Positions 1,036 through 59,541 of a stretch of 64,000 nucleotides of DNA are shown here, one piece after another (the first letter of the stretch is position 1; every line of letters starts with the position of its first letter). Position numbers and translations under genes: made by a program. The stretch lies in contig JBITNC010000001.1 of assembly GCA_050084985.1 (NCBI GenBank), positions 3,968,001 to 4,032,000 on the forward strand. Reading direction: 5' to 3'. Origin of the DNA: Nageia nagi. Taxonomy: Eukaryota > Plantae > Pinophyta. A model generated the notes under the pieces. The model was not told the origin of the DNA, ran no database searches, and saw only the letters and a program-made list of their open reading frames with translations.

Positions 1036-1037
1036 AG

Positions 1038-5359: not shown

Positions 5360-5384
5360 GACTGCTAGTGGGACCTTGGAGTCT

Positions 5385-25724: not shown

Positions 25725-25941
25725 TGGCCTCCATCACTTCGTTCTTAAGCTGCTCCTTCATCAGTTCCCATCCTTCATGGAAGGAAGTCTGCTTCTGAAG
25801 GTGCAAAGGGGTGGTGCTAATTTTCTGTAACTCTTTTATAATCTTCCTGCTAGCTGTGAGTTCCTTCTTCAACCTTTTCATCTCCTTTTTGGCTTCATAG
25901 CCTTCCTGTTCCATAACTCGACCAAAAAAATAATTTATAAA

Positions 25942-25946
<5 letters not shown>

Positions 25947-25978
<32 letters not shown>
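25947..25978. repeat. (TA)16 microsatellite
   Basis: Direct reading. Confidence 0.95.
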
Positions 25979-25981
<3 letters not shown>

Positions 25982-33522: not shown

Positions 33523-34015
33523 GAGGGGAGCCTTTTTCTTTCTCAAAAGAGCATCTATGCGTGCAATTTCCCCTTTATCATGTACATTTCTATATTTCTC
33601 CTCATTTCCCAAAGGCTTGTGTGGAAACACAATGGGCCTATGGAAAGCTATCTCATAGAAATGTGCTATTATTCCCTTAGGATCATTGCTCTTAGTAGCA
33701 GCTTCCCTGAAGAAGTTGTATGTTGTAGCTTTTCCCTCACATGTGTTGCCTCCACCCACGTCTGGCACACAGATTTGGATATAGAAATAGGTAAGTTTAT
33801 AGTGGCATTCTTCTTCCAGACCTTCTCCATCAGGAACAAGAGTTGCCTGGCAAACTCCATGAGAATCATCCTATCACTGGCATATCTCGGCAGGAGTAGG
33901 GGTTTCTCTTGTGAGCCATAGAACCTGATGTATGTAAAATCAATGTCCTGCAGAAAGAAATCTGCATGTACATTGATGGCTTGACCAGTTGCATCAAAAA
34001 TCCTCTTCACAACAC

Positions 34016-34445
34016 CCCTTGGGGCGTGACTATCGCTGGTATCGTCGGGCACCAGCATAGACATTATGCTTCGCAAGCGTGGTATGACCAACGGCACGAC
34101 CTACATGTCTAGCCAACTCCGCCTTACCGTCAAATCCATAGTTGCATGCTACTCGAGGTCTCATACCTCTAGGGCTTGATCCGGCCCCTTGGAGCACCGT
34201 ATTGTCATAGTTACCAGAGAGCCTGGCACACACCACCCAACCAACGGCCTTCTAACGGGTTTCACCCCTAAGGTCCCCCTGAGCTTTATTCACCCTATCA
34301 CCCCGATTAGTACAACCATAGGAACGAACTCACTTCCATGCTCGCCATGGTTCCTCTAACACGATGATCCGGGTTCGGAATGGCTCCCCGTGTGCTAGAG
34401 GTTACGCTCTATGCACACTCACCACCTCAGGAGAGGCGACCCTCT
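34016..34445. other. GC-rich, hairpin-dense 430-bp insertion of unknown class
   Basis: Absent from homologous positions in copies B (~41985) and C (~52250); many short inverted repeats. Confidence 0.75.
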
Positions 34446-35149
34446 CACATTCTCCCCTTTGATATCTTTGTAGATATCATATTCCCAGTAATCGGTCCTC
34501 TTATAGAAGTACTGGTCAAAAGAGGGCCAAAAACAAGGGCGCATGTTTCTTGAAGGGTGCAAAAGGACGTGATGAAAATGATGCGACTAGGTCCTTAAGC
34601 ACTTAGCCAAATTCCAGACTAGATTTGAAGTTTAACTCCTAGTCTCACCCTTTTGGAGGGGTGCTAAAAGCATGCGCCTCAATCCTTACGCTTGATTCCT
34701 GGCATGCTTTCGAAGGCCTGAGATCTCAAGAAAACTTCAAAAAAATGCAAGTTTGTCCTTGGCCACATGTTGAGGAAGGAGTTCTTTCTCTTCTCTACTC
34801 CCACGCTCTGCCCCAGATAGGTTTGCAAATTGAAACAAAGGGGCTGACTTCCCTTTTATAGCCCTCAGGATGGGATAGGTGTCGCCATGGGATAGGCGTG
34901 GAAGGAGGTCCAGTGCATGGGTTCCCACTTGTCAACGACGAAGTCCAACACTTAGCCAATTTTCTTTTCCTTATTCTGGTTGCATGGTTCTGGACGAGTG
35001 CAAAAGGACCCCTCCAAAACCTTGCGACAAGCCTTGATGCCCAAGAAAACGACTAAGTATCCTCTACCTTGGTCGCATCCTTTTAGACGAGTGCAAAAGG
35101 ACTCCACAAAAAGATTGCTACAGCCTTAAAGCTCAGAAAAAATGCTTAG

Positions 35150-35303
35150 TATGAAATCTACTAACTCATGTTTTCAAACCATAGATTTCATGTCTTGCAA
35201 ATCAGTATATATGAAATCTGCTAACTCATGCTTTCCAACTTTAGATTTCATGTATTGCAAATAGGCATATATGAAATCTACTAACTCATGTTTTCCAAAT
35301 TTA
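35150..35303. repeat. 60-bp tandem repeat, about 2.5 copies
   Basis: ATGAAATCT(A/G)CTAACTCATG at 35151, 35211 and 35271; each unit has the inverted repeat ATGAAATCT/AGATTTCAT. Confidence 0.9.
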
Positions 35304-37860
35304 GCTCTGATGCAAATTGATCATAGACTGAAAGTGCAAGGGATGCAGTAGCTTTTCCTCCCTTCTCCATGTCCACCAATGAGTAGCACAAAAGCCCCAA
35401 ACATGTGTCAAAGTTTGGCAAGAAGATTGCCCACATTGGTTGTTTATTCTCCCCTCCAACAATGCAAGGAGTCCCATCCAACAAGTCTCCCACTGAGCTC
35501 TAACGGCTGCCAACAAATCATTCTCCACAATGCTCATAGAAGCCCACACAATGCCTCCCTCTTTACCACATTGTATTGCGGTCTTGCTCCCCGTAGTGCA
35601 ACCCATGAGGAATGAAAGAAAGCTTCCAAAGCTTGGCCAATGAATTTCCAAACAGTCCCTCTTGCAACAACAGCCAAGACAGCGGCCAACGACAACCAAG
35701 ACAACGACCAACGAACTTGCTCTATCCTTGGCGGCTTCAGGTTTGTGATGAGAACTTCTCCAAATGATCTTGAAGAAGATCATTAATGCCCTTTTTGCAG
35801 CAGCTGGTAGGACATGATTATGTGTTCTGCTTGGAGCATTAACATCCTCCAATGTCACCCAAACACCCTTCATTTCTCCAGCCATCAATACAATCCTCCG
35901 CACATGCATACCAGTGTCCAAACCATCATCTAATGATGTAGAGGTAGCAGGTATTTCAACAGCAATCCTCAAAGTATCCATGAGATGGACTAGAGCCTTA
36001 ACGTCCTTCAATGCAAGGGAAGTTTCCTCCAAACTTGTGTCCATAGCCCAACCACATGCAGGCCTTGAAAGTGCTATCATCTCCAAACTCAAAATGAAGT
36101 CAAAAGTCAATGAATCAAAATTATCATGCAAAACATACCTTTTGAAAATCGGGCGATCATCTTCCTAGCCTAAGGATTGGTGACTCAAGAGTACAGAAGT
36201 GCTCTTAAGACCCTTAGAAGCCAAACGTTCCACATCCACCCTTGAAGGGCTCTCCTCTCCTCCTATGTCCCTCTTGCCTGGTCGTCCATCTTTTCATACC
36301 ATCTCCAAATGACTAGATGAAGCTTGGGGAAAACAATCCTTGGTGCCTTGCAATGTATACTTCTTCCCATCTACTTCAAATTTCATCACCAACTTCTGAT
36401 AATTTGAGCGAATGTCTTCCAAGTTGTACAACCTTTGGACTTCCAAAAGCAAATGTGGAATGCCATCCAAGGGGTAAATGTAGAAATCTTCCCAAGCCAT
36501 ATAGTCCTGGACCCTTATGCCAAACTTCTCCACTATCCTATCAACCAACGTGAGTTTCCCATTGGCATTGGTGACATAGAATCCTTCAAACTCCTTGGTC
36601 TTTGAGTCCTTTCTTGTGCACAAATTCTTCATCAATGAAGTTGTGTGTGGCTCCTGGATCTATCAACAACATCACCTCTTGGTTTGCAACCATCCTCTTA
36701 ACCTTGAGCGTGAAGTATTTGGGTATTCCAAGTTCAGTTCTCCCAAGTCCAGCTCTAAATCTGAATCATCATGCTCTGAAATCACCTCGATGTAGTGGAC
36801 TTGTCCCTTGCTCAAGCACATATGGCCACGCTCCCAAGGTTGCTTGCAACTGAATCATGTTCCTCTTCATTAATTCTTTCCTCGTCTCCTGGCTCGTCTT
36901 GCTCTCTTCCGGAGGTTGGCTTCTTTTGATGGTTTGAGGTCTCATCTCCAACGCCCCTCTCCCAGACGTCCCCATACAGGGTGGAATAGCGGGCTTGATC
37001 CTCATCATGCCAGGTTCCAAATCCAACACCCTCTTGATGGCATCTTGAGCTACATTGGGGAGAAAGCCTTAACCAACCCCTCAATGGTTTCGCTAATCCC
37101 TCCATGAAGAGGAAGGTAATCCTCTTCTCCGAAATGCTAGGAACCATCACAGTGATTTGTTGGAAATCCGCCACATACTTTTGCACTAACCGCCTTTGCT
37201 TTACTGCTGTCAAATCTTGGAAATAATCATCCTCATCTTTTTGGTTGAAGCGATCTATCTTCCTTTTGTTGAACACATCAAATGAAGTGATAGCCCCATG
37301 ACCCTGCGTAGTCATGCCATGCTGCCACCAGTCATATGCTAGGCCATCCAAGTGTAGTGTTACAAATCGTATGGCATTGTCCATCATGGGACTAAGCGTG
37401 AAGTATGTCTACAGCTTTTATAGCCTTTCCCTTGGAGTCATCTTGTTGCTTCTATCGAACAAGGGCACTTGCATTTTGCGCAACCTTTGTTGCAAATCTC
37501 TCCTATTCTTTCATGGTCTGTTATGAGAATGACTCTCGTTGGCCCTCTTGCCTAAAAATTCTAGATACATGCAAAAGGTCACATGCTCTTGAATTTTGGT
37601 GAATTTGTAGAGTAATGCCGATACAATTGATTGAGCTCAAGTGGTGAAATCAAGCTCATATTACTCTCTTGCCTTTGCATAAACATGGGCTTGTTGGGAT
37701 GTGGTAGAGGTGGAGGTGTTGCGACCTTCTTTGGAACGTCCCTCTCAAAAAATCTCTCCATCAACGGTTCTCTGGCAAGTGGATCTCTGGTAGACCCCAT
37801 CCTGAATAGTGAGTATCTCCCATCTTCCACCATTATGGAAAACCTAGCTCTCTGAAACAC
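35150..37860 (-). mobile_element. Fragment of non-autonomous gypsy (gag + protease), related to 1-5359; both LTRs lost
   Basis: AIRFVTLHLDGLAYDWWQHG (gag) and FEGFYVTNANGKLTLVDRIVEKFG (protease), near-matching element 1. Confidence 0.85.
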
Positions 37861-38094
37861 TGGATCTCAATATGAAGAAACAATAGAGCAAGATACAAAC
37901 AATATGACCCAAGAGGGTTGACGTCTGGCTCAAGGGATCAGATATAGGGCACAACACTCTCCAAATGCTATTAGAAGTTGATGTTGCATTGCTAGGGCCT
38001 TCAACCCTCGGATCTAAGATGCAAGACTGGATTTGACTATGGGATTCTGTCCTTAGCCAAGATCTAGTGAAGGCAACATCCCACTAAACGCTTT

Positions 38095-41000
38095 TGTTGG
38101 TATGTTTTTCTTTCCTTACCAAAACATGCACAAGATGTGGAGGAAACAACCTTACTTGTTTCCGCCTAAAAGGATTGGTTAGCCCAAGCGCTCACATGGA
38201 ATATGGATCCAGGCACAGTGGATAGAGATGCATGCTATTCAATCGTATACAATTGAGACTTACCGTCTAAATTCTTTTCCACAAAAGAGGAAAGATTGCA
38301 AGTGTGAACGAAAGCAAAGAAAGATCACAAATGCAAGGATAAGTAAATAAGAATGTAAAATTAAACATATGAAAATATCACCAATGATGCAACATCTCGA
38401 CAGATCAGTTCGGATTCTTTAAGAAAGATGTATTCACTTATCAAGCCTAGCAGTAAATAGCAAAGCTCAAGTTGCCACTAGATGAGAGCAAGAAGTTCTA
38501 GGGTCTATGATGGAAGACTTGTGGGAAATGAGAATGAAGAGAAATGACCAACATGTGAATACATATATTCTAGTTGAATAGCATAGAGATATGCTATACG
38601 CCACATAATACATTCACTTATGTGCAAACCATGCAATGAACAATTTGGACCACTTCAAAAGATATTCAACTTTCTTCTCTTAAAACTCTTAGTTTTCAAA
38701 GAGAATGCACTTAAGATGTAAAAACCATTCAAATTGGTAAGAAACTCTTACAAGATAAGATGCATGATCCCACAAATGACAAATTTCACAACATTTCTTT
38801 AAAGTACCATTCCAGAAGGAAATCAACTTATAAAGATACTCAGTGGCATGAACATGAGTATTCGTTTCTTTTGATTGCAAAACTCTTAGTATGTAATATT
38901 TCAAAATAAGCTAGAGATGCAACAACAATATGTAAAAAATCCTTTATGCAACGAATCCTCATATTCACAAAATCTCCTTTTAAATGGTCCGAGTGGGGTA
39001 TAAATAGACCATCAGAAGTGTTGCCCTAAAGGCATCAAATCTGATATTGTGTGCTCACATGCAACACACATATCAATGCAAAATCAGATTGTATCACAAA
39101 TAACAATGCAATTGGCATCCAAAACCGACAAAATATAAATGCCACAACCACAAAATGTCTAATCTATGCAAAATGAAATCAGACATGCTGAAAAAGTTTG
39201 ACATCTAAACCAGCGAGAGCAAAATCTCATCCTTGCACTGGTCAGATCCATAAATGAATTTGACAAATTTGATCCGGCGGGAGCAAATATCATCCTTGCA
39301 CTGGTCAAATAATGTAAAAGAAATCTGAAAGACTGTAACCATATGCATTTAACAACTGAAAAGACAATTAGAGACATAATCTACAAGTGGATCAAATCTA
39401 GGCCAGAATTGATCCGGCACCCGTGGAGTTCCACTCTTTGTTGGTGAGATTGTAGGACTATGGTCTCATACAAGAAAGCGAATGCTTTCCGCATTCCTTT
39501 GGAAATTATGCACATGGAATCTGCCTGCCTGGATGAAGCCTGCATTTGGAATCTGCAGATGACCATCTGTCTCTTGTGATGAATGGGTCTTCTTGCCTTC
39601 AATAGATTAAGATCTTCAACTTCAAGATGTTCTTGTATCAAGTTTTGGGCCTTTGCCAAGATTGCCTCTTTCTTCCGCACTTTACTATCTTCCTTTTGGA
39701 ACTTCAATTGATACACATATTGAGTCATTTGTTCTTCTACTTCCTTTCTTAGGGGTATTTTGATTTTAAGCACTGCTTGGCACTTATCCAATGCATGCTT
39801 CAGACAATCGTGCCAATACATGAACTCATAGCAGTAGACCAATTTTTCAAGTTTGTCGGCAAAGGTACGTTGCAAGTGGGTGATGATAGGGAGATAACCA
39901 TTGAGCTTCTCGAGGAGGGCTGTAATTTGGGATTTCAATTCTTTGATCTCAACACCTTGCTCAACAAGGCTACAAATTTGAGAAGCCAACTTCTCAATGG
40001 TCTCCATCATTTCCTTTTTCTAAGGAATCCTTCATCAACTCCCAACCCACATGAAATGAAGCTTGTTTCTTGCATTCTACAAGAGTGGTACTTACAGTTT
40101 GGAATTCTTTTATGATTTTTGTATTGGTTGTAAGTTCCTTCATCAATCTCCTCACCTCCTGTTTGGCCTCATAGCCTTCTTGCTCCATAACAACTATGTT
40201 CTGAGTGACTATGTGCTTCCTTGCTGGCATGCCTAGCTTTGTAGGCATCTTGAAAGTCTCTATCATACAATCTTCATGTCCTTTGGGACATTTCTCCTTG
40301 GAATAACAATGGCTAATGGAGATCTCCTTCCTACTAGTAGAAACATAAGTATCTGCTCTTTTTACCTTCTGACCATCGGAGAGCTCCTCCTCTTCGTTCT
40401 GAGTTCTTAGATCTGGATCTATATCCTCATCATGAGCCCTGCTCATGCTTAAAGCTCTCAGGCAGGCGTCCAAGTCAAGCTCTGGATGTTTGATGGTTGG
40501 TTTGGGAGGAAGTCTTTGTACCAACTCTATGCTTTTGTTTGCCTTCTTGACTTCTTTTGTTGGAGTAGATTGAATGAGGACAACTTCCTTACCTTGATGT
40601 TCATCTTGCTTCTTTTTCTTCTTTTGCTCTTTTGTTTCACCTTCATCTTCTTCATCTCTATCAGCACCTCCTAGAGATATTACTTTCCTACGGGGTTTAA
40701 GGAGATCTCTCATGGCCGGTTCTCTATGCTGGAGCCTTATGAGAAGATGGGGGTCATTTTCTTCTATGTTTTACAGGAGAGGGCTTGGAAGCGCCCACCT
40801 CTTTAGCATACTTCACTCCAACAATTTGGATGTCTTCATCACAAGTTTCTACATCAATAAATAAATCATCATCATCTGGGAGAGTATCAATCTCCATATC
40901 ATCAGGTGCAGAAGCACCTATGGCTACATTCTTTTGATCAGGGTACTCATCATCATGGTGGTTAGCATCATCATTATCATCCTCCTTCTCATCATCTTCT

Positions 41001-43316
41001 TCTTCACCATGACTCTCTTCTTCTTCTTAGCTCTCTACTTCGTCCGAGCCTTCTTCACCACTGCTTGGTTCATCATCATTTTCTTCATCTAAAGAAGAGG
41101 AGGAAGAATCGAAAGAACCGGAACTTGGTTGTAATGGGGGAACCATTCTCTTTGCATCCAGGAAGGTGAGAGGGTTTTTGTGGAGTTGGTTTTCTGATAG
41201 GGGAATCACTGGCACAAGCGTGCTCTAGTACATTCAAAGGGACATCATGGTAGCCAGCATCCCTATGATCAGCCACCTGTTGGCTTATCTTAGCTGTGTT
41301 AGCCACTACATTGTGTTTATTGGATCCCATTGAAGCATACTGTCCTAAAGTTCCTTGTCTTTTCCCAATGGAAAGCAAGGAATCCTTGACTTGTGGAGGT
41401 GTATCGCTGGCAGGAGGAGGTGTCTTGATCGTAAGTGGGACCTCTTTTGGTCTCTCTATTACGGTTCTAGGCCTTTGAGGTGTCACTCTTTTCTGCCTCA
41501 AGAGGGGCCTTATCTTTGCTCAAAAGAGCATCTATCTTCTTGATCTCCCCTTCATCACGTACATTCCCATATTTTTCCACATTTCCCAAAGATTTAAGCT
41601 TGTATATTATGGGTTTTGGAAATGCATGTTGCAAAAATGGGCACTGACACTTCTAGGATCATAACTGCTGCCTCCTTATAGAAAACATATTGGTAAAACT
41701 CCTTCCTCATACTCTTGGCCTCAACCCAAGTCTGAAAAACATAACTTGCAATGGAAATGGGCAAGTTAATAGTTGCATCTTTCTTTCTCCACACTCTTTC
41801 CTTCAAAAATAATAACTGCCTGGCAAACTCAATGAGAATAAGCCTGTCGCTAGCATATCTGGGCAGGAGAAGAGGTTGCTCTTTGGAGCCATAGACTCTG
41901 ATGTAAGTATAATCAGTATAATGCGGATAGAAATCTGCATGTACACTAATGGCCTAGATGGTTGCATCAGAAATCCTTTTGACTACCGATTCTCCTTTAG
42001 GGTAAATGTTCCACATCGGGATGCCTTTCTTGCTTAACTTTCTTTCATTTGCATGTTCGTTGGATCTGAATTTTCCCTGTAACAAAACATATAGCAAGTA
42101 GGAGTTCATCTAAAACCTCTTGAAGGAGTCCAAGTGGGCCAACTGGTGACAAGGAGCATCACTGATTACCTTGCTCCATCGTATAGCTCTCCCTGAGCTG
42201 ATCACAACAATGAAATCAGTGAATTCTTTCCTATACTTAGTATCATTTTCTTGCACTTTTGACTCCGGACAATAAAATAATTAACTTGGACACTGTAGGG
42301 ATGAATTCTTCCCTGCGAGCACTAATCAATCTCTGGCCCTCGATGCTTTGGTAATCGTCATAGAGCCAACGTCTAATATAGTCTCCAGGTCTGGTGGTGC
42401 TATCATGGAATTCCGCTGACTGGGCCAAAGTATAGTGATCTCCATATCTTTTCCAGCCAAAAACAGCTTCAATCCTTGCTGGAGAGAAGTCCATGATCAG
42501 TTCCCTTCAGAGTATAATAGAACTCTCTTATCATATTTACATCACTTGGCTACCTCGTAGCACAAGTCAGGGAAAGAAACAACAAAAGGCATCATAGTAG
42601 CATTAAATAGCCCACAGGATTGGATGATATCATCAGGTAAATCTTCTTCAGTAATACTGGCATTGGATGCAATAGTTTGGATGGGATCAATATTTCCCCA
42701 ATCATTATCTTTGACAAAAGTGAATCTCCCTTTGAATTTGGCTTCAGGGAGCTCTAGTTTTTCTCTCTCTTGAAATTCAATTTGGCTTTCTCTCAAAAGC
42801 CTCTCCATTTGATCTTCTGTAACATGTCTCTTGAAGAGTTGCTTCTGAATTTTCTTGGGTTTGGATGGGGTAGGCTTTGCCCTGGAACTCATCTTAGAAT
42901 CTGGAAAATATAACAAATAACCCAAAAGGGCCTGAATTCTGGCAAAAAATACCCAAAAAAGGTCAACTGTTTTGGATGCACTGTTATGGATCTATCTTGG
43001 AGCAATGTAAAGAACTCTAGACGTGCAGGTTCAGGCTACTAGATCGTCCTGCAAAAATGGACTGAAAAAATCCCCTTTTACAGAGGCTGCATTGAGCGTA
43101 TATGTTTGGCACATTGCATGGGTGCCACTTGTCTACTTGGTGTTTTTATTCTTGGTTCCTCAATACTTAACCAAATTTAGCTCACAATTCCTGGGGTGCA
43201 CCGATTTGGAAGGGCGCTTTTTCACAGTCTGAAAAACATGCACCTAGGTACCTTATGGAGAAACACATCACTTAGTCAATTCATCCTTGCTAGGGCAAAA
43301 TATTTCATTTGGAATG
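38095..43316 (-). mobile_element. ORF-bearing giant LTR, copy B (3' end intact, 5' part cut by a gypsy insertion)
   Basis: Minus strand ends GGAAAGAAAAACATACCAACA, like the solo-LTR end GGGAAAGAAAAGCTTCCCAACA; followed by PBS-like GCGTTTAGTGGGA (38079-38091); collinear with 49271-53600. Confidence 0.72.
39381..42892 (-). pseudogene. Accessory ORF copy B, about 1170 codons (globular N-terminus, acidic/Ser-rich linker, likely coiled-coil C-terminus)
   Basis: Starts MSSRAKPTPSKPKKIQKQLF; listed ORF fragments tile the interval and align in order with copy C. Confidence 0.85.
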
Positions 43317-45299
43317 TGTGATGTCCCATTTGGACGAATGATAAAATGTATCATGGTCACTTTGTATGCTAGTGTATGTTCATAGTCATGTTGTTCATGT
43401 GTTACTCAAGCAAGAGCTTATGGTCTGCAGACCCTACTGTGAGCCTAGCAATGGGACATCTCTGCTTGAGTAGTGATGTGTTTATTGTAATGGGTTATCC
43501 TGGATTGTGGGAATCCCAATGTGTCATGTGTAGCTCATGGGTAATCCCGGATTGTGGGAATCCCTAGGTAGATGTGAGTCATGTATGTTCAGGGTGCACA
43601 AAGGAGTGTGCCAGCGTTGGGAGGACCCAACATACCCCCGTTGGCTCAGGAGACTTCATGGACCCTCATGTCAGCCCAGGAGGCAGTTTGGATCCCAGTT
43701 CAACCTTGAGGGCCTTTATGACCCCCACGTTGGCATATTGGGCCAATGGGACCCCACATTAGCATACTGGGCCAATAAGACCCCCACGTTGGCATTGTTG
43801 ACTTGTTGACCTTGATGTTGGATTAGAATTGGCTTGGGGTGATAACGAGGCATGACGGGTTTACATGAGAAATTATATATTAAGGATGGAGCTCCATGAT
43901 GAGGTTACCACTTATCATTTACTTTCTATACTAGACCCGATTGGGCAACCCAGTATTGGTGGTGCTGAGCAATGTTCCTAGACGGCGTCTAGAGGAGTGG
44001 CAGGGTTGGGAGCTTAACATTCTACGACTTAAGTGGATCACCTAGCCCATCCGATGGAATTCCGAAGACGAGCTTCTACCTTCAGAGGTTTCCAGGATTC
44101 GAGGAGACTCCATCGCAGGAGGGGATTCGGGTTGCTGAGGGAGTGAGTCTAATCCGTTTGTATGTTCGGCTTGTGAGGTTTTGGAACCCTGGATCTATGT
44201 TTGTCCCTCCATTTGTATTTCCATTGTCTCATATAATATTAGACGGCTCATTGTGTCTCTCTTCATTGTGTTGTTCCATTGTGTGCATGCGTTGGCCCTT
44301 GAGGCATTGTATTGTTGTTGTTTCATTGTATGTTCCATGCGTTGTGATATACTAGTGTTGGGAGCTTCATACTTGTGTTACATTGAGTTGTATTGCATTC
44401 GTTGGTGCTATTGTGTTGTCCATCGTTGTTGTAAGGCATTCGTAGGGTTTGTAGGGTGTTGGAGAAGCCTTAGAGGTTGACGTCAGCATTGGGTAACCCA
44501 AGTTGGTGTGTTGAGGTGTTTGTGTGCCCTAGAGGGCAATCATTGGGTGTTTGAGAGTTGTAGAAACCCTAGTCTGAGTTGTTTTTGATTGAGGGTTAAT
44601 TTGGATCCTCACAAGTGGTATCAAAGCCAAGATCTTGCCAGCTTGAGGGGATAGAGGGCTGATCTATAGTCATAGTGAAGAAGTAGGATTACGATCCAAA
44701 GGTGTTCTGTCACTTGCTCTGAAGATATGAGGAAAAGATTCTGATGGAGGAAAGGAAGAAGCTCATTTGGTACTTAGGTGAAAGGCATGCTGACATGATG
44801 AGTAAGAAGAAGGGACGCCACATCTACCCAGACTAGACCCAGTGCACATGACACCACCATAGATTGAAATCTTGCTCCAGATCTATCATGGCATGGCTAA
44901 GGAGTTTCAGAGGGATGTCAACTTTCATGTGTACCAAGATTTGCTAGGGTATGGAGTGAACTCATGGGATGGAAACATCGTTGGGGAAGTTGGGGCTAGC
45001 CCAACCCAGACGACCGATTCAAGGGGTGATTATAAGAAAGACACAACTCGGGATCTGAAGGAGAAGGACGATCTGGAAGAGGGTTTCAAGGAAGGGGCAG
45101 CCTTGGATCTAAAAAGGAAGACTGAGCGGAAGATATCCCTCCGTTCTAGTGCCATGCATAACAGGTTAGAAATAGTCACGTAAGTGATTTCGACAAGAAG
45201 CATGGATGCCACTATCTGGAAGAAGAAGAAAGAATGGGTTTGTCTCTTCACATTGACCAAAGGAGGGCCAATGTTGGACACCGAGGAAGCCCATAAGCA

Positions 45300-48200
45300 A
45301 CCATCGAAGATTCAAGCCATTCTGGATTAGTATCCGAACGTCTTTGGGGAGATACCTAAAGGCCTATCGCCGTCACGAGGGTTTGAGCATGTGGTAGACC
45401 TAGAGGAGGGTGCCAAGCTTGTCATAGTTAACGCCATATAGGCATCCCAAAGCCTATAAAAATGAGATCGAGAAGGCCATCAAGGAGTTGTTGGATATGG
45501 GGTTCATCAGATCCACAATAGCCCTTTTGCATCCTTAGTAGTTTTGGTGAAGAAGAAGGATGAGACCATGAGGATGTGTATTGACTATCGGTTGCTAAAC
45601 AAGAAGACTATCAAGAACCGATACCCGATCCCAAGGGTAGACAAACTCATAGATGAGTTACATGGAGCCAAGTACTTCTCCAAGATTTATCTAAGGTCAG
45701 GGTATCATTAGATCTGGATGGAGGAGGATATCCATAGGACAACATTTCGATGCCACTTTGGCCACTTCGAATTCATGGTGATGCCATTCGGTTTGACCAA
45801 CGCACCTGCCACTTTCCAGTTCGTAATGAACTAGGTGTTTCGGAGGCAATTGTATGCTTTAGTATTCTTTGATGACATATTGATCTACAACAAGATGTGG
45901 GAGGAGCATTTCAAGCATTTGGAGAATGTATTGAGGATACTGTAGGAGCACGATTCTATGCCAAGTTTTCCAAATGTGAGTTCGAGATGCTGGAGATCTT
46001 GTACTTGGGGCATGTCATAAGCCATGAAGGGGTGAAAGTAGACGAACATAAGATCTCTGCTATCCAGGAGTGGCCAGTCCCTACAACCCTCACGTCGCTG
46101 AGAGGATTCCTTGGGCTATGTAACTACTACGGAAGATTTATTCATGGGTTCTCCCACTTGGCAGCACCTCATGTAGCTCACCAAGAAGGATGCCTTCGTT
46201 TGGAGTGATGAGGCACAAGAGGCTTTTAGGAAACTCAAGGAAGTGATGTGTACATGCCCTTGTTTGGCCATACCCGACTTTTCAGCCCCATTCACGGTGG
46301 AGTGTGACGCATCCAAATTGGGTATAAGGGTTGTGTTGATGCAGAACGGGCAGCCAATGGCTTTCAAGAGCAGGAAGATAACCAATGCTGAGAAAAACCT
46401 GAGTGTGTATGACAAGGAGATGTTGGCTATCATGCATGTACTCGAGAACTTCAAGCAGTATTTGGTATGTGGACCGTTTGTCATACAGAGTGATCATAAC
46501 AATTTGAAGTACTTCCTTAGCCAGACAGATCTCACCGAAAAGCAACAAAGATGGGTGAGGAAGCTGCAATCGTATGATTTTGAGATCCAGTACATCAAGA
46601 GAAAGAAGAACGTTGCCGTAGATGCCTTGTCCCGAAACCCATCATTCCATTCATTCTCTACCATCACAGCCAAATGGAAGAGAGAAGTTATGGAAGAGTA
46701 TGCACAAGATGTGTTCACTACAGGGATCCTTGACGGATCAATCAGTAACATGAGGTATGTGGTAAGGAATGGCTGATTTACTAAAGGGTGAGGATCCTCC
46801 TGACACCCACGTCTGAAGTGAGGAAGAAGGTGTTTGCATGCACTCCATAACACACCCCTCGTAGGTTGATGAGTCCAGAAAATATTCTATTATTGACATA
46901 ATATTGTTATCTAATGGGTGCATTTAAAAGGATACTTTAAGTAAGTAATAATATATATTGTATGCTTACTAGTCTAATTAGAGATAAATTATCATATTAT
47001 GTTATTTGCTAATATTTAATGTTTTATGTACTTTTATGTACTATGAGAGCAATAAAAGAGTTAAAGATATAGCTCTTTGACCAATGGTTCGAAGATGGTC
47101 CATATCAGCAATCCTTTTCTGGCTATGGAATCACAATGACTTGTTCACAACAGCTCTAGACACACTACCCTTAGCTCCGGATGAAACTCTGTTCGCTTTA
47201 GACATTGTCAAGATAGCTCCGGACAACTTTTGGTTGACCAAATGATGTCAGAATAGGGTATATACTATATCGATAGGAAGCTATTGAAACAAGCTTTCCA
47301 TTGATGTATAGATTGAAGACAACGGAGCTACCATGAAAAAGATATAGCCCCCAAAATTTGCTGTCACGTGTATATAGTAGGGTTGAAAATCAGTGTCGCA
47401 GCTAGATGCCGAACAGAGACCAAACATAGACATGTTATATATTTTCGAAAAGCTCTCGAAAAAGGGTATCGAAAAATATAAAGATATCATAGATTTGATA
47501 TATCTTGCGAATATTATGGCTGCTACAAATTTGCCCCAGCATTCAACACGTACAGTTGGAGATGATATCCTATTTTGAAGACAAAGCATTAAAGCAGATC
47601 CTACAGAGGTGGAGATTTGTTGTTATTTATTGTACACAGCCAGATTTAGAGTAACCAAGATTGGAGAACAAAGAATAGACCAGATCTGAAGATTCTCATC
47701 TTTGGGTGCCCAAGTTAGCACCATATCTTCCATCTTCTAAATATGTATTGGATTGTAATTGTGGATAGTTTGTTTTATTTGTATTGAGTCATTTTTAACA
47801 TAGTGTAGAAAGAATAAATACCTCTTGAGGGAGAGATATGCAAAAGGGAGAGATATGCAGAAGAGAGAGATATGCAAAATATAGAGATATACATAATATA
47901 AAATAGAGAGATAGAATATTGTGGGAGACTGAAATATTTTCAGTATCTATTTGTACGCAGTTGATTCATGAATAAGAGCTGATCATTTTCTGAATTTGAG
48001 TTTTGTTTAGGCACTTTGCTGGATGAAGTTGGGCCCCCTTCAACCAGTAGAGTTGCCCTTATATTTTTGTAGTAGTTATTTTCAGCAGTAGTGTGTGAGT
48101 ATCATTTTCCATTGTGCAATTCCTTTCTCGTGATTTCCATTGTCAAGGCCTTATTGCAGCTACTAGATTAGATTTTCCAATTCCTGCAATTTCAATTCCT

Positions 48201-49255
48201 GTAATTTCCATTCTTGCAATTTCCAATTATGCAACTTTGAATCTTTCAATTAAATACATAGTGAGTAGGACCAGGTTCAATTGCATACAACCTTAGGACA
48301 CCACCTGGATTTAACAAGTAATGAAAAAATTAAATGTGGATTCCCAAAACTGGTGAGAGGAAACAAAAACTATCTTGAGTGTCGGAGCATCAGCTCCTTG
48401 ATCTAACTGGTCCCTTCACAGTAATAGGTGAGAGGTTCACCAGATGAGGGTTAATGATAGACCTTGAAGTGGAAATTTGGGGGTTCATACTTGACTCATC
48501 ATAGGTCAACCAGGTGTTGCAAAGACATATCAAGCCATCAGGGAGAGATTCACGTGGAAAGGGCTCAGGCAGGATGTATTGGACCACCTGGGAGTGTGCA
48601 CATTGCCAGGAGAATAAGGATGAGTATGTGAAGCCGAGAGGATTACTTCAACCCCTGCCTATTCCCCAACAGAAATGGGAACACATCTCCATGGACTTCA
48701 TCATTGGTTTGCCGAAAGCCCAAGGTAAAGATTGCATTATGATGGTGGTTGATAGGCTCACCATGTTTGCCCACTTCTTCGCTATTACCACCACTCACAC
48801 AGTCATACAAATTGTAGAGTTGTTCTTCCGAGAAGTTTTCAGACTGCATGGCATACTGTTGAGGATAGTCAATGACAGGGACAACAAATTTATGAGTGTG
48901 CTTTGGTAAGAACTATTCTGGCTGAGTGGAACAACCCTCACCCCTAGCACAAGTTATCATCCTCAAATTGACCGATAGACATAGATTGTCAACAAGTTGG
49001 TTGAAGGGTACCTGCGTCATTATGTCACTGGCCAACAACAAACGTGGATCAAATGGCTCCACGTTGGGGAGTATTGCTACAACACTACTCATCATTCATC
49101 TATTAAGATGTCCTCCTTCCGTGCGTTATACGGATATGATCCCCATAACTTTACAGATCTGATTTTTGATGTAGAGCTCCCATGGTTAACCAGTTTTTGT
49201 AGGAATATTAGGACATCCTAAGGGTGTTGAGAGACAACTTGAGGATGGCTTAGGA
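45300..49255 (+). pseudogene. Gypsy pol (RT-RNaseH-integrase), interrupted by a solo LTR
   Basis: [46 protein letters not shown] and WEHISMDFIIGLP motifs. Confidence 0.93.
46867..48501. mobile_element. Solo LTR, 1635 bp, inserted in the integrase zinc finger
   Basis: 9-bp inverted termini TGATGAGTC/GACTCATCA; TSD TAGGT at 46862-46866 and 48502-48506; integrase reads HNTPLVG|QPGVAKTY across it. Confidence 0.92.
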
Positions 49256-49270
49256 TAGCAAACGAAGTTC

Positions 49271-52200
49271 TAAATGGCTAGGATGGGGTATAAATAGGCC
49301 ACTAGAAGTGTTGCCCTAAAGGCACCAAATCTGATATGGTGTGCACACATGCAACACACATATCGATACAAAATCAGATTACCTACATGAATCGATGCAG
49401 ATGGCACTTAAAAACCTGACAAAACATAAATGCCACAACTAACATGCATTTAATCTACCTCTAAACTACTCAAAAGTAAATAAGATATGCAATAAAGAAG
49501 TCTGACATCTGAACCGGCAGGAGTAAAACCTCATCCCTGCACTAGTTAGAACCATAAATGAGTATGATAGATTTGATCTAGGGGAGCAAAAACTCATCCT
49601 TACACCAGTCAAATCAAGTAAATAAAGTCTTGACATAATAACAACCGTCAAATATGCATTTAAACAAAAGATCAAATACTGCAGACAAAATCTATGGGTG
49701 GATAAGACCTAGGCCAGATCTGATCCAATATTGGCGGAGTTCCACTCCTTGCTGGTGAGATCGTACGACTCAATGGTCTCCTTTAAGAACGCCACAGTCT
49801 TTTGCATGTCCCTGTAAATCATGCCGATGGTGCTACCATCCTGTCCAAAATAATCATCTATCTTCTTGGACGTAGCTTGAATTTGGTGTCTCCAGATGAC
49901 GATCCGCCTCTCATGGATGATGGGATGCCCTACCTTTAGTAAGCTGAGGTCATCGATGTCAAGATGCTCCTGTATTAGATTTCGAGCCTCTGCCAATACT
50001 ACCTCCTTTCTCACATTGTTTTCCTCCCCTTGGAACTTGAGTTGATAGACATATTCACTCATTTGTTCCTTGACCTCCTTTCTCAAGGGGATTCTGATTT
50101 TTAGGGCTGCATTGCACTTTTCAAGTGTGTGGTTCAACCAATCGTGATGATAAGTGAACTCATGGCAATAGACCAACTTCTCAGGATTGTCAGCATAAAT
50201 ATGCTGCAGATGGGAGACGTTGGGAAGATGACTATTCATTGTGCTAAGGTGTGCTGAAATTTGCGCCTTGAGATCTTTGATTTCAACACCTTCAACAAGG
50301 AGCTTGTAAATTCGAGAAGACAGTCTCTTGATAGCCTCCATCACTTCCTTCTTCAGCTGCTCCTTCATCTTTTCCCATCCGTCATGGAAGGAGGTATGCT
50401 ACTGCAGATCTAAGGATGTGGTATTGATCTTTTGGAACACATAGTCGTGAGTTCCCTTTTTAATCTCTTCACCTCCTTCTTAGCTTTGTAACCTTCCTGC
50501 TCCATGATTGCAGCATTCTGAGTGACTATGTGTTTACGGGTTGTCAATCCCAGCTTCACGGGCATCTTGAATGTCTCAATGATGCGGTCTTCTACTTTCT
50601 GAGGGTGTTTCTCCTTCAAATACCAATGGCTGATGAAGATTTCTTTTCGAGAAGTGGAGACAAAAGTGTCAACCCTTTGAATCTTCTCGCCATTCGAAAG
50701 CTCTTTTTCCTCATCTTCAGAGCATAGGTCCTGGTCTATATCTTCATCATGAGCCATGCTTATGCTTAGAGCTCTAAGGTAGGCATCTAGGTCAAGATTT
50801 GGATGTTCGGTTGTTGGCTGAGGAGGAAATGTTTGAACCAACAGCCGTCCTTTGTCAATCTTCTTGACCTGTTTCGATGGAGTGGTTTGAACGATGGTCA
50901 TCTCCTTACCTTGGTGCTCTTCTTGCCTTCTCTTCTTCTGCTCCTCTGTCTCTCCTTCATCTTTTTCATCTCCTCCATTACCGCCTATAGATATACCTTT
51001 GTTCCGTGGCTAGGGAGATCTCTCATGGCTCGTCCTCTTTGTGGAGGATTTATTCAAAGAGGAAGGGGACTTCTTCCTATGCTCGACAGGAGAGGGTTTG
51101 GAGGCAGTCACCTCTTTAGCACACTTCTCTACAATGATCTGGACATCATCATCATAAATTCCAACATCCACTATCTCATTGTCATGTAGGAGAGTCTCAA
51201 TCTCCGTCTCCTCGGGTGCAGAGGCACCTATAGCTACATCTTGCTTTTCAGGGACAGCGGTAGCATCATCATCATCATCTTCTTCCTCTTCTTCGCCATG
51301 GCTTTCTGATTCTTCTCCAAAATCTTCCACTATACTGCTAGGCTCTTTATCAGTCTCTTCATCGGAAGAAGAAACGGAATGTTCAGAACTGGAACAGGAA
51401 CTTGGTTGCAAAGGGGGAACTTTCTCCCTGCATCTAGGAGAATGAGTGAGTCTGGAAGGGACCGTTTCCGTGGGTCAATCACTAGCACAGGCCTCATGCA
51501 CTACATCATCCAGCACGTTCGAGGGGAGAGCATGATAGCTAGCATCCTTGAGATCAACCACTACTACGCTGCACTTGCTAGGGCCTGGAATATGTATCCT
51601 TGGAATCTCTTGCCTCTTTCCAATAGGAAGCAAGGACGTCTTGCCTGGTGTAGATGCATTGCGAGCAGGAGAAGGAGACGACCTGATCCTAAGTGAGACC
51701 TTCGTAGATCTAAGCTTTGTGGTTCGGGGTCTTTGAGGTGGCTCTTCTGCTTGAAGGGGAGCCCTTTTCTTGCTCAGAAGAGCATCAATCTTTGAAATCT
51801 CCTCCTCATCTTGCACGTTTCGGTACTTCTCCACATTCCCTAAAGACTTATGCGGAAATGCAATGTGTTTGTGGAATGCAGTGCTGTAGATATGTGCAAT
51901 TATGCCCCTAGGATCATAGTTTTTCGCAACTGCCTCCTTGGAAAAGGCATATTGCTGTAGTACCTTCCTTATGCTGGCTGCCTCAACCCACGTCTGACAC
52001 ACGTATCTAGCAAAAGAGATTAGCAAGTTGATGGTTACATTTTTCTGCTTCTAGACTTTCTCTTTCAGGAATAAGAGCTGCTTAGCAAACTCCATGAGGA
52101 TCAGCTTGTCGTTGGCGTATCTTGGCAAGAGTAGGGGTCGCTCCTCTGAGCCATAGACTCTGATGAAAGTATGATCAGCGTTTTGTAGGACGAAATCTGC

Positions 52201-55059
52201 ATGTACACTGATAGCTTGAGTGGTTGCATAAGAAATTCTCCTTACCATGGACTCCCCTTTGGTATCTTTGTAGATATCGTACTCCCAATGATTTTTCCAT
52301 TCACAGAAATGTTGGAACTTGTTCTGATACCACCATTGTGGATAGGCTCACCACATGGGGGTGTTATTTTGTCCCAGATATCTCTCGTCAGCCAGCTCTC
52401 TGGATCTGACTTTGCCATGCAATAACAGGTATACAAGATAAGAGTTCATATAGAATCTCTTCGAGTAACCAAAATATGCTAATTGATGGCATAGGGCATC
52501 ACTGATTAACCCAGCCCATCAGATAGCCCTTCCCAAGTTGATAACTGCAATGAAGCCCGTGAACTCCCTCCGGTACTTAGTGTCGTTCTCTTGACCAGCG
52601 ACCCTTGATAAGAGAGTGATTAGCTTGGCCACAATAGGCAGGAACTCCTCTCTACGCACGTTGATCGACCTCTAGCCTTGAAGATTCTGGTAATCTTCTA
52701 GCAACCAGGGCCGAATGTAGTCTCTGGGTTGGGTCATGGAATTCTTCAGAGTGTGCCAACGTGTAATCGTCACCATATTTCCTCCAGCCAAAGTCTACTT
52801 CAATTCCAGCAGGGGAGAAATCCATGATTACATTTCCCTCTGTATCCCGTAGGACTCTTTTGTCATATTCACATTTCCTAGCCACCTCACAACACAAGTC
52901 AGGAAAAGGTACTGCAAAAGGCATCATAGTGACGTTGAACAAGCCACGTGTGGATGAGCTCTTCTGATAAGTCCTCCTTGTTGATGGAGGTTGTAGAGGC
53001 TAATGTCTGGATGGTGTCTAAGTTTCCCCAATCTTTATCATTGACAAAGATGTATCTCCCCTTTAATTTGGCTTCAGGGAGCTTTGGTCTCTCTCTCTCT
53101 CCTGAAATTCAATCAAGCTTTCTTTCGAAAGTCAGGTCATCTGGCTCTTGATTACATGTCTTTCAAAGAGCTGGCCTTGAATCTTTTTGGCCCTTGATGG
53201 AGGTGGCCTGATATTGGAAGCCATGCAGAAATGTCTGAATACCCCAAGAAAACCCTAAAGACAAATTTGGGTGTTGTGAAAGATGCAAAAAGGTAGAGTT
53301 TGACGTGCAGATTTGGGTTGTAGGATGTCCAACACACTGAATGATAGTTGCTTCCCTCTTTTATATGAGATGCATGGAGGTTGAATGCATGGCAGGACAC
53401 ATGCTTGCTATTTGTCTTCTTCTCCTGTCAACTCCTGGCGTCTCACACTTGACCCTTTTAACCTTGCAATCCTAGGTGCATAGTTTTGGATGAGTGCTTG
53501 AGCATAACTTGAAAAGCATGCGACTGAGCCTAGGGTCACTGAGTCAAATTTCGGAGCATAATTCTTCACCTCAATTCTAGGCGCATGAATATGGATGAGT
53601 GCTAAAGCATGTGTCTAAAAGCATGCGCCTAGGCTTGGGACTTCACTGAAATGTTTTAGCCAAAAAAAGCTAACTGGATGCACAACATCCCCTAAAACAA
53701 TTTATTTCTCCCTAGCGCACTGTTTTAGATGAGTGCAAAAGCATGCATTAGAAATGGTGCGGCTAGGAGGAAGAGATGGTAAATCTGAAATGAAGTGATC
53801 TAAATGACTAAGAGGTGGGGTAATATTTATAACATTTTGAATTGCCACGTGTCACCTTCGGGTTGGTCAAACTAGGGGTCAAATGACGGAGCTAAAACAA
53901 GGGTGCATGGTTTTAAAGGGGTGCAAAAGCATATGATGAAAATCATGCGACTAGGCTCTTAAAACACTTAGCCAAATTCCAAGTCGACACTAAAGCCCAA
54001 TTCTTGGTCGCATCGTTTTAGAAGGGTGCTAAAGCATGCACCTTAATCCTTGCACCTGGGGTCTAGCACGCTTTCCAAGACCAAAAATTCCAAAATGACT
54101 TGAAAAATGCAAGTTTGACATAGGTCGTACGTTTTGGAGGGGGTGCTTTTCTCCCTTGGTCCTACCCAATGCTCCAAACAATTTTGCAAATTGAAAGATT
54201 GAGGTTGACTTTCTTTTTATAGCCTTTCGGGTAGGATAGTTGTCGCCATATAATAGGTGCAAGAAGGGGTCAAATGCATGAGAGTCCACTTGTCAAGAAC
54301 CTAGCCCGACACTTAACCAATTTTCTCCTCATGAATCTGGTTGCATGGATTGAATAGGTTGCAAAAGCACTTGCTTGAAAACATGCGACAGGCTTTGAAG
54401 GCCTCAAAAATTGCTAAGTCCTTTCCCTCCTGGTCGCATCGATTTGGAAGGGTGAAAAAGCACTTGTTTGAAAGCATGCAATAGGCTTTTAAGGCATCCA
54501 AAATGACTAAGTATGAGAGACTTTCTTCTTGGTCACACGGTTTTGGATGGGTGCAAAAGCACTCGTTTGAAAACATGCGACAAGCTTTCCCAAAATATCC
54601 TAAGTATGAGGGACTTGAACCTGGTCGCACCATTTTGGGTGGGTGCAAAAGCACTCACCTAAAAACATGCGACAGGCTGAAAGCATGATTTTGCCTTGCA
54701 TTTTGACCAAAATGACTTCAGACATGAAATACAATGAAGGGGAGACAAATTTCGACAACTTGAAGGAACTCAAAAGTGCAATTCTAAAACTGAGAATGCA
54801 AGTGATGAGTATGAAAATGCAGCATGAGGCTGGTTGCACTATTTTGGGTGGGTGCAAAAACACTCAAAAACATGCGACTAAGGCAAAAATGCACAATTCT
54901 GACTTGACTTGACCATGAAAATGTAGTTTTAACCCGTTTCCTGAAGCTAAACCAAAACGTATGCATTCCCTTTGACAACTATTACTTCCATGTATTTTTC
55001 TTTTATTTCGAGGTTCTTCAAAACGTAGAAATTTTGGGGGGTGTTGTGCAGGCACAACA
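49271..55059 (-). mobile_element. ORF-bearing giant LTR, copy C (5' end intact, 3' end deleted)
   Basis: Minus strand starts TGTTGTGCCTGCACAACACCCCCC, the same terminus type as 33522, 55733 and 60982; degenerate repeats (53400-54900) precede the ORF. Confidence 0.78.
49709..53224 (-). pseudogene. Accessory ORF copy C
   Basis: Starts MASNIRPPPSRAKKIQGQLF, ends KEWNSANIGSDLA; collinear with copy B. Confidence 0.87.
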
Positions 55060-55732: not shown

Positions 55733-58700
55733 TGTTGTGTCCGTACAACACACCCCAAATACAAGATTTTGGGGACCCTATTTTTGCAAAGACAATGAGG
55801 AGCATTGCTTTGAGATTGGCTTTGGGCGATAGATAGTTCATTTTGAAGAGTGCAAACATGATATCAGGGAGCGATTCAAATAGATCTTGCAATGAAGGCC
55901 TTGAAGAGTATGAGAGTATCCAATCACCAATTTTGCAGCTAAGGAGTCAAGATCTGAGAGAGAATATCACGGATTTTGGTCTAGAGTGCAATCAGTGGAG
56001 ATGGGGTCGTTTCTTCAGAGTTTTAAGTTTGCAAGTGCCAAGTGTGACGAAATTGAGCGTTTTTCTCAAGTACAAAGATCGGGAGTAGTGGATGCAGCTA
56101 AGATAACAAAAATAAGTGTTTTTGTCAAGTATGAGCCTGGAAAGCTCAAAAATGGTCATTATCATGAAAAGGCGCGTTTTGGTCGATTTTGAGCCTGGAA
56201 GTGGTCAGCATGGTAAAGATGTGCGTTTTTGCACTGTTTGAGCTCAGAAAGCTCGAAAATGGTCAAAAATGCAAAGTTGAGTTGAAAATGGTTGGAAATG
56301 CTTGAAAGTGTTGGAAATGATCGTTTTTTTCACACTTAAGGCCTGGAAATGCCGGAAATCGGTAGAAATGGATACTTTAAGCCCAAAAGTGCCGAAAATG
56401 ATGGAAAATGACAAGTTTGAGCTCGAAAAGGTGAAAATGGTTGTTTTTGCATCGTTTGACTCTAAAATCATTGAAAATGCAAAATTTGAATCCGGAGATG
56501 CCGAAAGTGGCGTTTTGGTTGAGTTTGAGCTCGGAAATGCGGAAAATGGTTGGAAATGCACAGATTGAGTCCGGGATGGCCCAGAAATGCGAGTTTGAGT
56601 ATCCCTAGCCCTAGGCATGTTTTCCCAAGGTATTGAAGACCCAAACAAGGGGAAAATGGTGCATGTTTCTCATGGTTAAATGCAAATGGTGTCGGATTTC
56701 AAGTCCAAGAGCTTCATTGGAGAGATAAAATGAATTCTATCACAATGAAGACTTGAAATTTTCGATGTTGACCAAGTCTAAGGCACTCAAATCCTAGTAG
56801 GAGTTTTTCAAGCCTATGGAAAAACCATAGAGATGATTTTTGGCGCCTAGATTGACAAGATGAAGTGTTTTTTTGGCTCAAAAAACATGTTTAGATGCTT
56901 GGGAACAAGGAAGAGACCACTCTAAGCACAGTTGATACTCAAAATTTTCGATTTTGAGCACTTTTGGGCATCCTAAAGGCTAGGCACAAGTTTGGGGAGC
57001 TATAGAAATCCAATAAAGTGAAAAATGGCACCTAAAATGAAACAAAAATCAAGTTTGAGGTGTCCATTAAGTGAAATTTGGCATTTTGAACACATTTAGG
57101 TCTTGGAAAAATCAATTTTGAGGCCCAAAATGCTAGGTGCAGGTTTGCAAGGCTATGGAAATCCAATAGGATGAATTTTGGCAAAACTAAAGTTTGAAGG
57201 TTTGAGAGCAAGGAAGAAGGCATTCCAAGGCACTTTATGTCTACAAAATTTCATTTTTGAACAAGGGAAATGCCCCAAAAGGTTAGGCGCATGTTTTCAT
57301 GCCAATGGAATTCCAATCAAGTGAATTTTGGTGCCTAAGTCAAGGATGGAGATGGATTTTTGATCAAAAACCAAATTTGAAGGCATAAATGGATGAAAGA
57401 CCCCATTTCAAGCACATTTAAACTTGCAAATTTTCATTTTTGAGCAAGTTTGGGAGTACAAATATCTAGGCACAGGTTTGGGGGTGATTGAAGATCCATA
57501 GAACTGAATTTTGGTGCCTAGGTTGGAAAAATTTGACAAATTTCACTCAAAAATCAAGTTGGACCCCTTCATTGCATAGAAAAAGGCAATTATAGCACAT
57601 TTAACACTTGAAAATTTTGATTTTGTGCCATGGACACCCCTCGAGAAGGTAGGCGCAGCTGTTCATGTCATTAGGAATCCATAGACCTGAAAATTGGCGC
57701 CTAACATGAAAGAATGTGAAGATTTTGCCCAAAAATCAAGTTTTTTGACATATTTGCAAGGAAAATGCCATTTTGAGCTCATTTAATACTTCAAATTTTC
57801 AATTTTGAGCAACTTAAAGGCACCAAAAAGCTAGGCGCAGTTTTCCAAGTGTATGGAATTCCAATGAGATGAAAACTAGCGCTTAACTTGTAGAGGAACA
57901 TCAAATTTTGCTGAAAACTCGAAAATTTTGCCTTCATTGCATGTAAAATGACATTCTAAGCACCTTTAAACTTTGGAATTTTTGAATTTGAGCAAGTTAA
58001 AGGTCTCAAAAATCTAGGAGGCATTTCTCATTCCTATGGAAATTTCACCTTTTAATCTTTCGAAATCCATAGACATGAAAATGAAAAAAATTGCCAAAAA
58101 CTTCAAATCTTTCCCAAAACCTCCTAAAAGCCCCAAAACCTCTCAAAACTTGCCAAATGCCTTGTAATCCTATCCTCCATCCATCCATAAGCTCAAATCC
58201 ACTTTTTGAAAAATTTCCAAGTTTCGGAACCCCCCATCTTATTCGAAAAATAGACCACAAAATCCACTTTTCAAAAAATTCTCTCAGAATTTTTGAAAAT
58301 TTGCCACAATGATCACATCACAGGCAAATCCAAATTCAAAGGAGCTCAAAAGACTGTCAGAAGGATCCAGAACAATGATTTGAAGCTCCAATTTTTTGCC
58401 AAATTGATGCAAAATGCCTCGAAATACGTGCTAGAGGGTATCAATTTTTGTAAATATTTTATTTTTTAGCATATTTTAGGGGGATGAGACTGTTCTCTCA
58501 CTAAAAGGATATTGTAATCTCAATTTAGCATTCAAATTGGCATTTTAGAGCTTTTTTAGGAATTAGGGCAACACTCAAATTTTGACCTAAAAAGTCTATA
58601 AATAGACCATATGGGGTCACATTTTGAGGTAGAATGTTGTAGTTCAAGAAATTTCCAATTTTTTCAAAATTGAAAATTTTTGCAATTTAGGAGTAAATTG

Positions 58701-59541
58701 ATGTACTTGTGCAAAACTCTTTTGCAAACATAATACAAATGGCTACAAGTCGATTCAAAGTGTATTATCATCTATGGGAGTGGTGGATTGATCTTTTTAG
58801 AGCAATTTTTGTAATTTGAACATTTTTGTGCCTTCTCTTTGAAAACTCTCAGTTTTAGAAGAATTTGTTGCAACTTTTTAAAAATGTTTGAATTGTCTTA
58901 AATTGTTGCTAATTCATCACTTGCTTGTTAAATGCTTAGTATTCTGAATTGACTTTCTCTTAAGACATTTTCCTAGATCTTTTGTTCAAAACTATCCACC
59001 TTCACTCACGTTTAGTCCACTTGGTTGCATTGGTCCTGTTCACAGAGTACTGATAATCAGTTTTGCTTCTCGCTCATCCTTGGAATGATTGGACAATAGT
59101 CATTTATTTCAAGGACTTGATTGAATTGAACAAGATTTCTTAACTGATCAGAGAGGAAGAACATTTAGACAATGCTACATTGTGATTATCTCGTTGAAGT
59201 CTAGCCAATATTCGACCTCATTCTCATTTTTTCTTTTCTTTATTTTACACTTTCTTTAAAACTTATGGCAAATTTCAAACTATTGTAAGATAACACACCT
59301 CAATCCCTACAAAAAACGTGAGTTAACAGTTATTACCTCTACTATATCACTTAGCTGATTCCCAAACAAGACCTACCAATTTAAAGCTCGTATTAACGAC
59401 AGAGCTTTCCGATAGAAACCTTGGCGTATCAGTCTTTACAAGTGGAGTTCAGTAACGCATTCTCACCTACATGTTGGGTCGCTTTCCCGTCCTGATCTTA
59501 TAGGTGATTGTCGAGTAAGAGGAAAGGTTTCCTTCCCAACA
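55733..59541 (+). mobile_element. Giant solo LTR, 3809 bp, same terminus family as 27862-33522
   Basis: TGTTGTGTCCGTACAACACACCCC...TTCCCAACA; TSD ACCCT/ACCCC (1 mismatch); CTATAAATAG at about 58596. Confidence 0.87.
56760..58045. repeat. Degenerate tandem array, mostly ~180-bp period, inside the solo LTR
   Basis: TAGGC(A/G)CA..TTT...GGAAATCCA-like anchor at about 56980, 57133, 57283, 57466, 57648, 57830 and 58013. Confidence 0.8.

Follow-up and report, generated by a model that had tools for sequence, protein, structure and literature searches.

In the genome of the conifer Nageia nagi, a stretch of 64,000 nucleotides (contig JBITNC010000001.1, positions 3,968,001 to 4,032,000, forward strand; hereafter the window) contains decayed copies of a repeated unit of 6.7-6.8 kb that starts with TGTTG and ends with CCAACA, and we are very confident that a whole protein-coding gene of about 1,170 codons lies inside this one TG..CA unit. 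The unit itself is likely to be the long terminal repeat (LTR) of a gymnosperm retrotransposon, and the open reading frame (ORF) likely belongs to U3 rather than to R/U5. Taken by itself, the layout, i.e. a gene inside an LTR, is probable.

From its 5' terminus the unit runs through about 1.8 kb of short repeats and TATA-like motifs into the ORF, which is followed by 0.4 kb, a second TATA-like motif, a 0.9-kb tail and the 3' terminus. All four 5' ends, i.e. those of copies C (55059) and D (60982) and of the related solo units S1 (33522) and S2 (55733), start with TGTTG, a shared terminus already recognized in an earlier reading of this DNA (the original prediction), and all four 3' ends (B 38095, S1 27862, S2 59541 and the metagenomic locus L001) close with CCAACA. 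The first 18 bases of C (55059-55042) and D (60982-60965) form a hairpin, TGTTGTG-N4-CACAACA, the terminus being the same on both strands. D is homologous to C, as had been proposed, with 68% identity over the first 1.24 kb of C (score 212, shuffle maximum 39), and both the collinearity of B and C and the LTR-type 3' end of B hold, the two copies aligning over about 4.4 kb (43241-38978 and 53521-49268) with 66% identity. The end of C, originally placed at 49271, is a break at 49268, so that the 3' TATA-like motif at 49297 falls within C. Joining C to the tail of B yields 6,675 bp, in agreement with the predicted 6.7 kb, and the 5' part of C plus L001 yields about 6,800 bp. C and B were rejected as twin LTRs of one element, as they are 66-70% alike and their divergence is mostly synonymous. 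A family profile run across the window returned no additional member.

The joining of C to B, on which the original prediction relied, is no longer needed, since L001 spans the break of C. L001 is the sole related locus of a metagenome scan (one of 166 pattern matches) and contains, in one piece, 320 bp preceding the ATG, the ORF, the TATA-like motif, the tail and a B-type end, followed by unrelated sequence without a primer-binding site (PBS). Its ORF is 80% identical to that of B and 72% identical to that of C, and the 3' non-coding parts are 83-86% identical. For the loose ends at 49268 and 38994 no significant placement was found; L001 takes their place. Moreover, neither of the 1.3-1.4-kb tails (B, L001) can be aligned with the 5' part of C or D, so that the ORF is not located between two short LTRs. 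Positions 1-76 of L001 are a 100% identical inverted copy of its positions 1668-1743, which is likely an amplification chimera, and the first bases of this contig are untrustworthy.

Further support comes from D and B, which are likely the two ends of one insertion with a decayed target site duplication (TSD; GAAGG/AAAGC, 3/5). D stops at the equivalent of position 53823 of C and B starts near 53590, i.e. D and B tile the unit. The sequences left of D and right of B are likely one host LTR that was split by the unit and that has its own decayed PBS-like motif and gag-protease region. In run X4, ten contigs of the repeat right of B continue into a 30-mer, not into B. Without gaps, this 30-mer matches best, within the window, to the sequence immediately left of D (21/30, a value that 3 of 500 shuffles attain anywhere), and when anchored at the position predicted from the TSD it scores 30, a value reached by none of 42,646 sampled positions and by none of the other three termini; a gapped, unanchored search with the 30-mer was not significant. 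With one host LTR on both sides, the purine run directly before D, originally taken for a polypurine tract (PPT), is best interpreted as target sequence, and so is the PBS-like motif after B; no PBS motif follows B. B was also rejected as the 5' LTR of the downstream gag-protease element, as other copies of that repeat run on without B. On its 5' side B is cut by a plus-strand gypsy element; one solo unit may have been split by this element and by a probable DNA transposon carrying S2 and C, and may then have been trimmed by deletion. Taken together, the bridge provided by L001 and the D+B insertion support the gene's location within a 6.7-kb TG..CA unit better than the argument from which it was first proposed.

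The designations LTR and U3, and the two gene copies per element that follow from them, now rest on the termini, the TSD length and the promoter-like layout, whereas the PPT before D and the PBS after B fall away. The TSDs match at 5/5 positions for S1 and at 4/5 for S2, so that of the two solo units described as TSD-bounded S1 has the perfect 5-bp repeat; the ORF-bearing unit offers only the decayed D+B pair. B, L001, S1 and S2 each have a TATA-like motif 913-1152 bp before their 3' end, and TTAGGGCAACAC upstream of the downstream TATA-like motif is common to B, C and S2; the motif at 49289-49318 of C is likely the main LTR promoter. In line with the original prediction, no PBS motif was found in the five non-coding parts scanned (C 5', D, C 3', B 3' and L001 3'), and none of the four 3' flanks matches any of the eight PBS motifs tested; solo LTRs have neither PBS nor PPT.

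The ORF has been under purifying selection in its evolution. The decayed reading frame of about 1,170 codons proposed for C (53224-49709) is present with its frameshifts and falls into five frame segments with in-frame stops. It comprises a conserved N-terminal domain of about 450 amino acids, an acidic Ser/Pro-rich middle region and a C-terminal part that is predicted to be helical. The ratio of nonsynonymous to synonymous divergence (dN/dS) is 0.14 for C/B over 750 codons and 0.13-0.22 in all five copy pairs, with 0.07, 0.38 and 0.12 for the N-terminal, middle and C-terminal regions, respectively; these values were computed on the best-scoring aligned segments, by which dN is biased somewhat downwards. 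As the divergence among copies is mostly synonymous, the gene was functional while the copies diverged, although every copy seen is now dead. The named relatives are hypothetical proteins of Taxus chinensis (two of ten clusters looked up), pointing to a gymnosperm source, and the relatives P0005 and P0006 are located on contigs of 11.5 kb and 12 kb. A search with the full-length protein gave no match, a profile search returned three proteins, none with a telling domain, and an atlas search with P0027 gave no usable match; the viral contig collection contained no related locus, its six pattern matches having no DNA likeness to the window. L002, from the genome contig collection, was rejected as a chance match of 35 amino acids in a bacterial gene.

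The N-terminal domain is predicted, with reasonable confidence, to have a PMD/VANC-like fold, as judged from a model. In a structural search, the top match of a family member was VANC21 (PDB 9lnk; 6% identity, 222/362 residues covered), the single outstanding match among 48,161 chains and 4.3 Z units above the next row, as obtained from one such search. Foldseek against PDB and BFVD gave no match at E<=0.001, and a search of PDB by sequence none at E<=10. The model of the C-terminal part was poor (pLDDT 50) and was not used; this part has no homology to P0086 or to a short ORF-like stretch in S1. PF10536 matched neither the ORF pieces nor the 34 relatives scanned, PF04195 and PF03078 did not match the ORF, and the scans revealed no transposase or recombinase family, the unit having no second ORF. 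In an unbiased k-mer test, GTCGCA/TGCGAC occurs nine times in the 5' part of C (0.32 expected) and CGCCTA seven times in S1 (0.14 expected) and five times in S2; a count of TG[CT][GA]CC[TC]A was not used, as this motif was chosen by eye.

Based on these findings we tentatively propose that the gene is a U3-encoded PMD/VANC-like regulator that acts on its own LTR; given such a fold, the odds of this action are even at best. The N-terminal domain is predicted to bind the repeated motifs and to counter methylation or activate the LTR, as VANC21 does for VANDAL21. The second TATA-like motif, which ORF-less relatives also have about 0.9-1.15 kb from their 3' end, would be the U3/R promoter, and the upstream TATA at 53366 would drive the gene, making each LTR, solo LTRs included, a promoter-plus-gene cassette. 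Probably the gene was once an accessory ORF, situated between pol and the 3' LTR, and became part of U3 through an upstream shift of plus-strand priming. More speculatively, and rather unlikely in its full extent, gymnosperm retrotransposons may carry an anti-silencing module in the LTR, i.e. a VANC-like gene plus a predicted binding-site array in a 6.8-kb U3, with solo LTRs protecting themselves and serving ORF-less relatives in trans, and an LTR length cap may have hidden the family from surveys. Several observations weigh against an LTR with such a regulator. None of the eight termini has a PBS or PPT, the D+B reading, while supporting the long unit, removes the only priming-site evidence, and the window contains no pair of direct unit copies around gag-pol, L001 being too short to reveal one; no internal region with a Tat-type pol was seen. 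The tail of B is only weakly like S2 and has no clear likeness to S1. D and B do not have the GTCGCA/TGCGAC motif, which fits fast turnover yet weakens the link between motif and protein, and the 5' parts (0.31-0.44) are no less depleted in CpG than the window (0.38), giving no sign of protection from methylation.

The gene might be located in the U3 of a giant LTR and nevertheless have another accessory role, e.g. in the handling of RNA or particles, or its likeness to VANC might be no more than a shared helical arrangement; this is unlikely, as the one outstanding structural match is a plant transposon accessory protein, and an env-like membrane protein was rejected, no window exceeding a mean hydropathy of 1.5. 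It is improbable that the unit is a mobile element in its own right, having TG..CA ends and a 5-bp TSD, whose ORF codes for a protein for its mobility or a helper protein and whose non-autonomous derivatives are S1 and S2, even though the bare termini fit this, all three units with both ends readable (S1, S2 and D+B) stand alone and VANC is a DNA-transposon protein (PMC5735166). The inverted ends of the unit comprise only about 5 bp, a TATA-like motif is retained some 1 kb from the 3' end in its ORF-less relatives, no transposase or recombinase family was found, and long LTRs are known to leave many solo LTRs, Retrosat2 having 429 solo and 162 complete copies (PMC3485330).

If the unit is an LTR, the full-length RNA might start at the upstream TATA (53366 or earlier), placing the ORF in R/U5 as first cistron, like an Ogre-type 5' ORF now before the PBS. 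The upstream motif is indeed canonical (TATAAAAG in C and L001) and the sequence of the downstream one in B, C and L001 is TATTTATA, but in S2, which has a tail homologous to that of B, the counterpart aligned with the downstream motif is the canonical TATAAATA, and an R-U5 of 5 kb would require an unusually long strong-stop DNA, so that we have little faith in this arrangement. That a short-LTR element carried the ORF internally, as an ordinary accessory ORF, the long unit having arisen by deletion or by joining of unlike copies, is highly improbable. Accessory ORFs are normally internal (PMC7264820), no single copy with both termini was seen and C and B are just 66-70% alike; against this, the 5' parts of C or D do not recur in the tails of B and L001, no PBS motif separates terminus and ORF, and L001, B and C share the order from ORF to tail as C and A share that from 5' part to ORF.

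A gene in U3 is already known from sag of mouse mammary tumour virus (MMTV), which has an LTR of about 1.3 kb and a sag of about 320 codons; the layout described here is real, the LTR pair and the anti-silencing system being putative. The sag gene lies mostly in U3, which has an internal promoter (PMC4667437), and, as the gene favoured here as U3-encoded would be, is replicated along with every LTR and retained in solo LTRs, although MMTV is a retrovirus with a far smaller LTR and ORF and an unrelated kind of protein. In plants, reviews place accessory ORFs in the internal region (PMC7264820). The extra ORFs of Tat/Ogre Ty3 elements that encode a PMD (plus a coiled coil), including gymnosperm TatIII, are located upstream of gag or 3' of pol, in TatIII in antisense (PMC4408406; PMC6317226). 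They resemble the ORF described here as selected non-gag/pol ORFs of plant retroelements, with an N-terminal fold that is likely related (via the likeness of VANC to MAIN) and a C-terminal part predicted to be helical, whereas our ORF is in sense inside the terminal unit and does not match PF10536, PF04195 or PF03078. The rice elements Retrosat2, RIRE3 and RIRE8 share long LTRs (>3.2 kb), an extra ORF and many solo LTRs, but their ORF0 is described as preceding gag-pol and was searched for separately from the LTR, and their LTRs are half as long (PMC3485330).

VANC21 of the Arabidopsis MuDR element VANDAL21 binds a short motif in tandem arrays in non-coding parts of its own element and brings about a loss of methylation (PMC5735166). 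Both systems thus share short motifs, here putative binding sites, that are arrayed in the element's own non-coding parts. VANC, however, is encoded in a eudicot DNA transposon beside a transposase, whereas the unit has a 5-bp TSD and neither second ORF nor transposase family. A VANC-like fold beside motif arrays offers a direct test of sequence-specific anti-silencing by LTR retrotransposons, which has so far been shown for VANDAL DNA transposons. Should it prove true, it would have a bearing on the continued multiplication of retroelements in conifer genomes despite their heavy methylation, and solo LTRs would be more than inert remnants. In titles and abstract beginnings of a limited literature we found no plant LTR with an internal protein gene, and an earlier description is possible. 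The survey behind REXdb limited LTR length to 6,000 bp (PMC6317226) and would thus have missed a 6.8-kb LTR family by design.

Table 1. Copies of the unit, related units and host sequence in the window.
Feature	Position	Strand	Description
Copy C	49268..55059	-	TGTTG 5' terminus, ORF, 3' TATA-like motif; breaks off at 49268
C 5' non-coding part, likely U3	53225..55059	-	93-bp tandem repeats; 9x GTCGCA/TGCGAC; TATA-like motifs at 54222, 53832, 53366
C decayed ORF	49709..53224	-	1,172 codons nominal
C downstream TATA-like motif region	49289..49318	-	TTTAGGGCAACAC...CTATTTATA; common to B, L001 and solo S2 (as CTATAAATA)
Copy B	38095..43316	-	Pre-ATG part, ORF (ATG 42892, stop ~39398), TATA-like motif 39007, 0.9-kb tail, CCAACA end
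Copy D	59649..60982	-	5' 1.33 kb of unit; cut at 59648 by probable DNA transposon
Host repeat, left half	60983..61349	-	Contains purine run once read as PPT; TSD copy GAAGG 60987-60983
Host repeat, right half	37850..38094	-	TSD copy AAAGC 38094-38090, then decayed PBS(Met)-like motif and host gag-protease
S1	27862..33522	-	Related 5,661-bp solo unit without ORF; perfect TSD CCCTC; 365-bp and 107-bp tandem repeats; 7x CGCCTA
S2	55733..59541	+	Related 3,809-bp solo unit without ORF; TSD ACCCT/ACCCC (4/5)
Copy A	25706..35154	-	In pieces: 5' non-coding 35154-34507, deletion-joined to ORF pieces 34515-34452, 34013-33522, 27861-26466, 25917-25706

The window is a patchwork of plant transposable elements nested in one another. 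In four DNA or unlabelled runs, thousands of variant contigs cover each of the 30 bins of 36000-55999, i.e. the repeats here are multi-copy; contig depth was left out as evidence. C sits inside the probable DNA transposon (55060-55732 and 59542-59648), which starts with TAGGG, may be hAT-like and received both S2 and C; one family of units thus struck a single small target twice. S2 shares the TATA region and the tail with B, weakly. S1 struck copy A and is inserted in its ORF; at 29175-29414 (minus strand) S1 has, between two TATA-like motifs and where C has the ORF, the short ORF-like stretch mentioned above, which has no significant likeness to the ORF. At 25743-26619, copy A contains a 158-178-bp direct repeat (94-99%) on both sides of an AT-rich insert that measures about 460 bp and includes (TA)16, and its ORF carries an insert of about 440 bp (34013-34452) starting with TGTGAG.

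Elsewhere in the window, 84-5380 contains an LTR pair that is 86% alike and a gag-protease-like region, no pol ORF of at least 120 amino acids being listed there; its likeness to the host element (36325-37504) is 58%. After the host protease, a stop-free frame of 287 codons (35301-36164, minus strand) has no Pfam match and in part matches 25276-25436 in inverted orientation. Decayed pieces of a reverse transcriptase like that of a long interspersed nuclear element (RVT_1, E ~1e-6) are located at 21623-24373 (minus strand).
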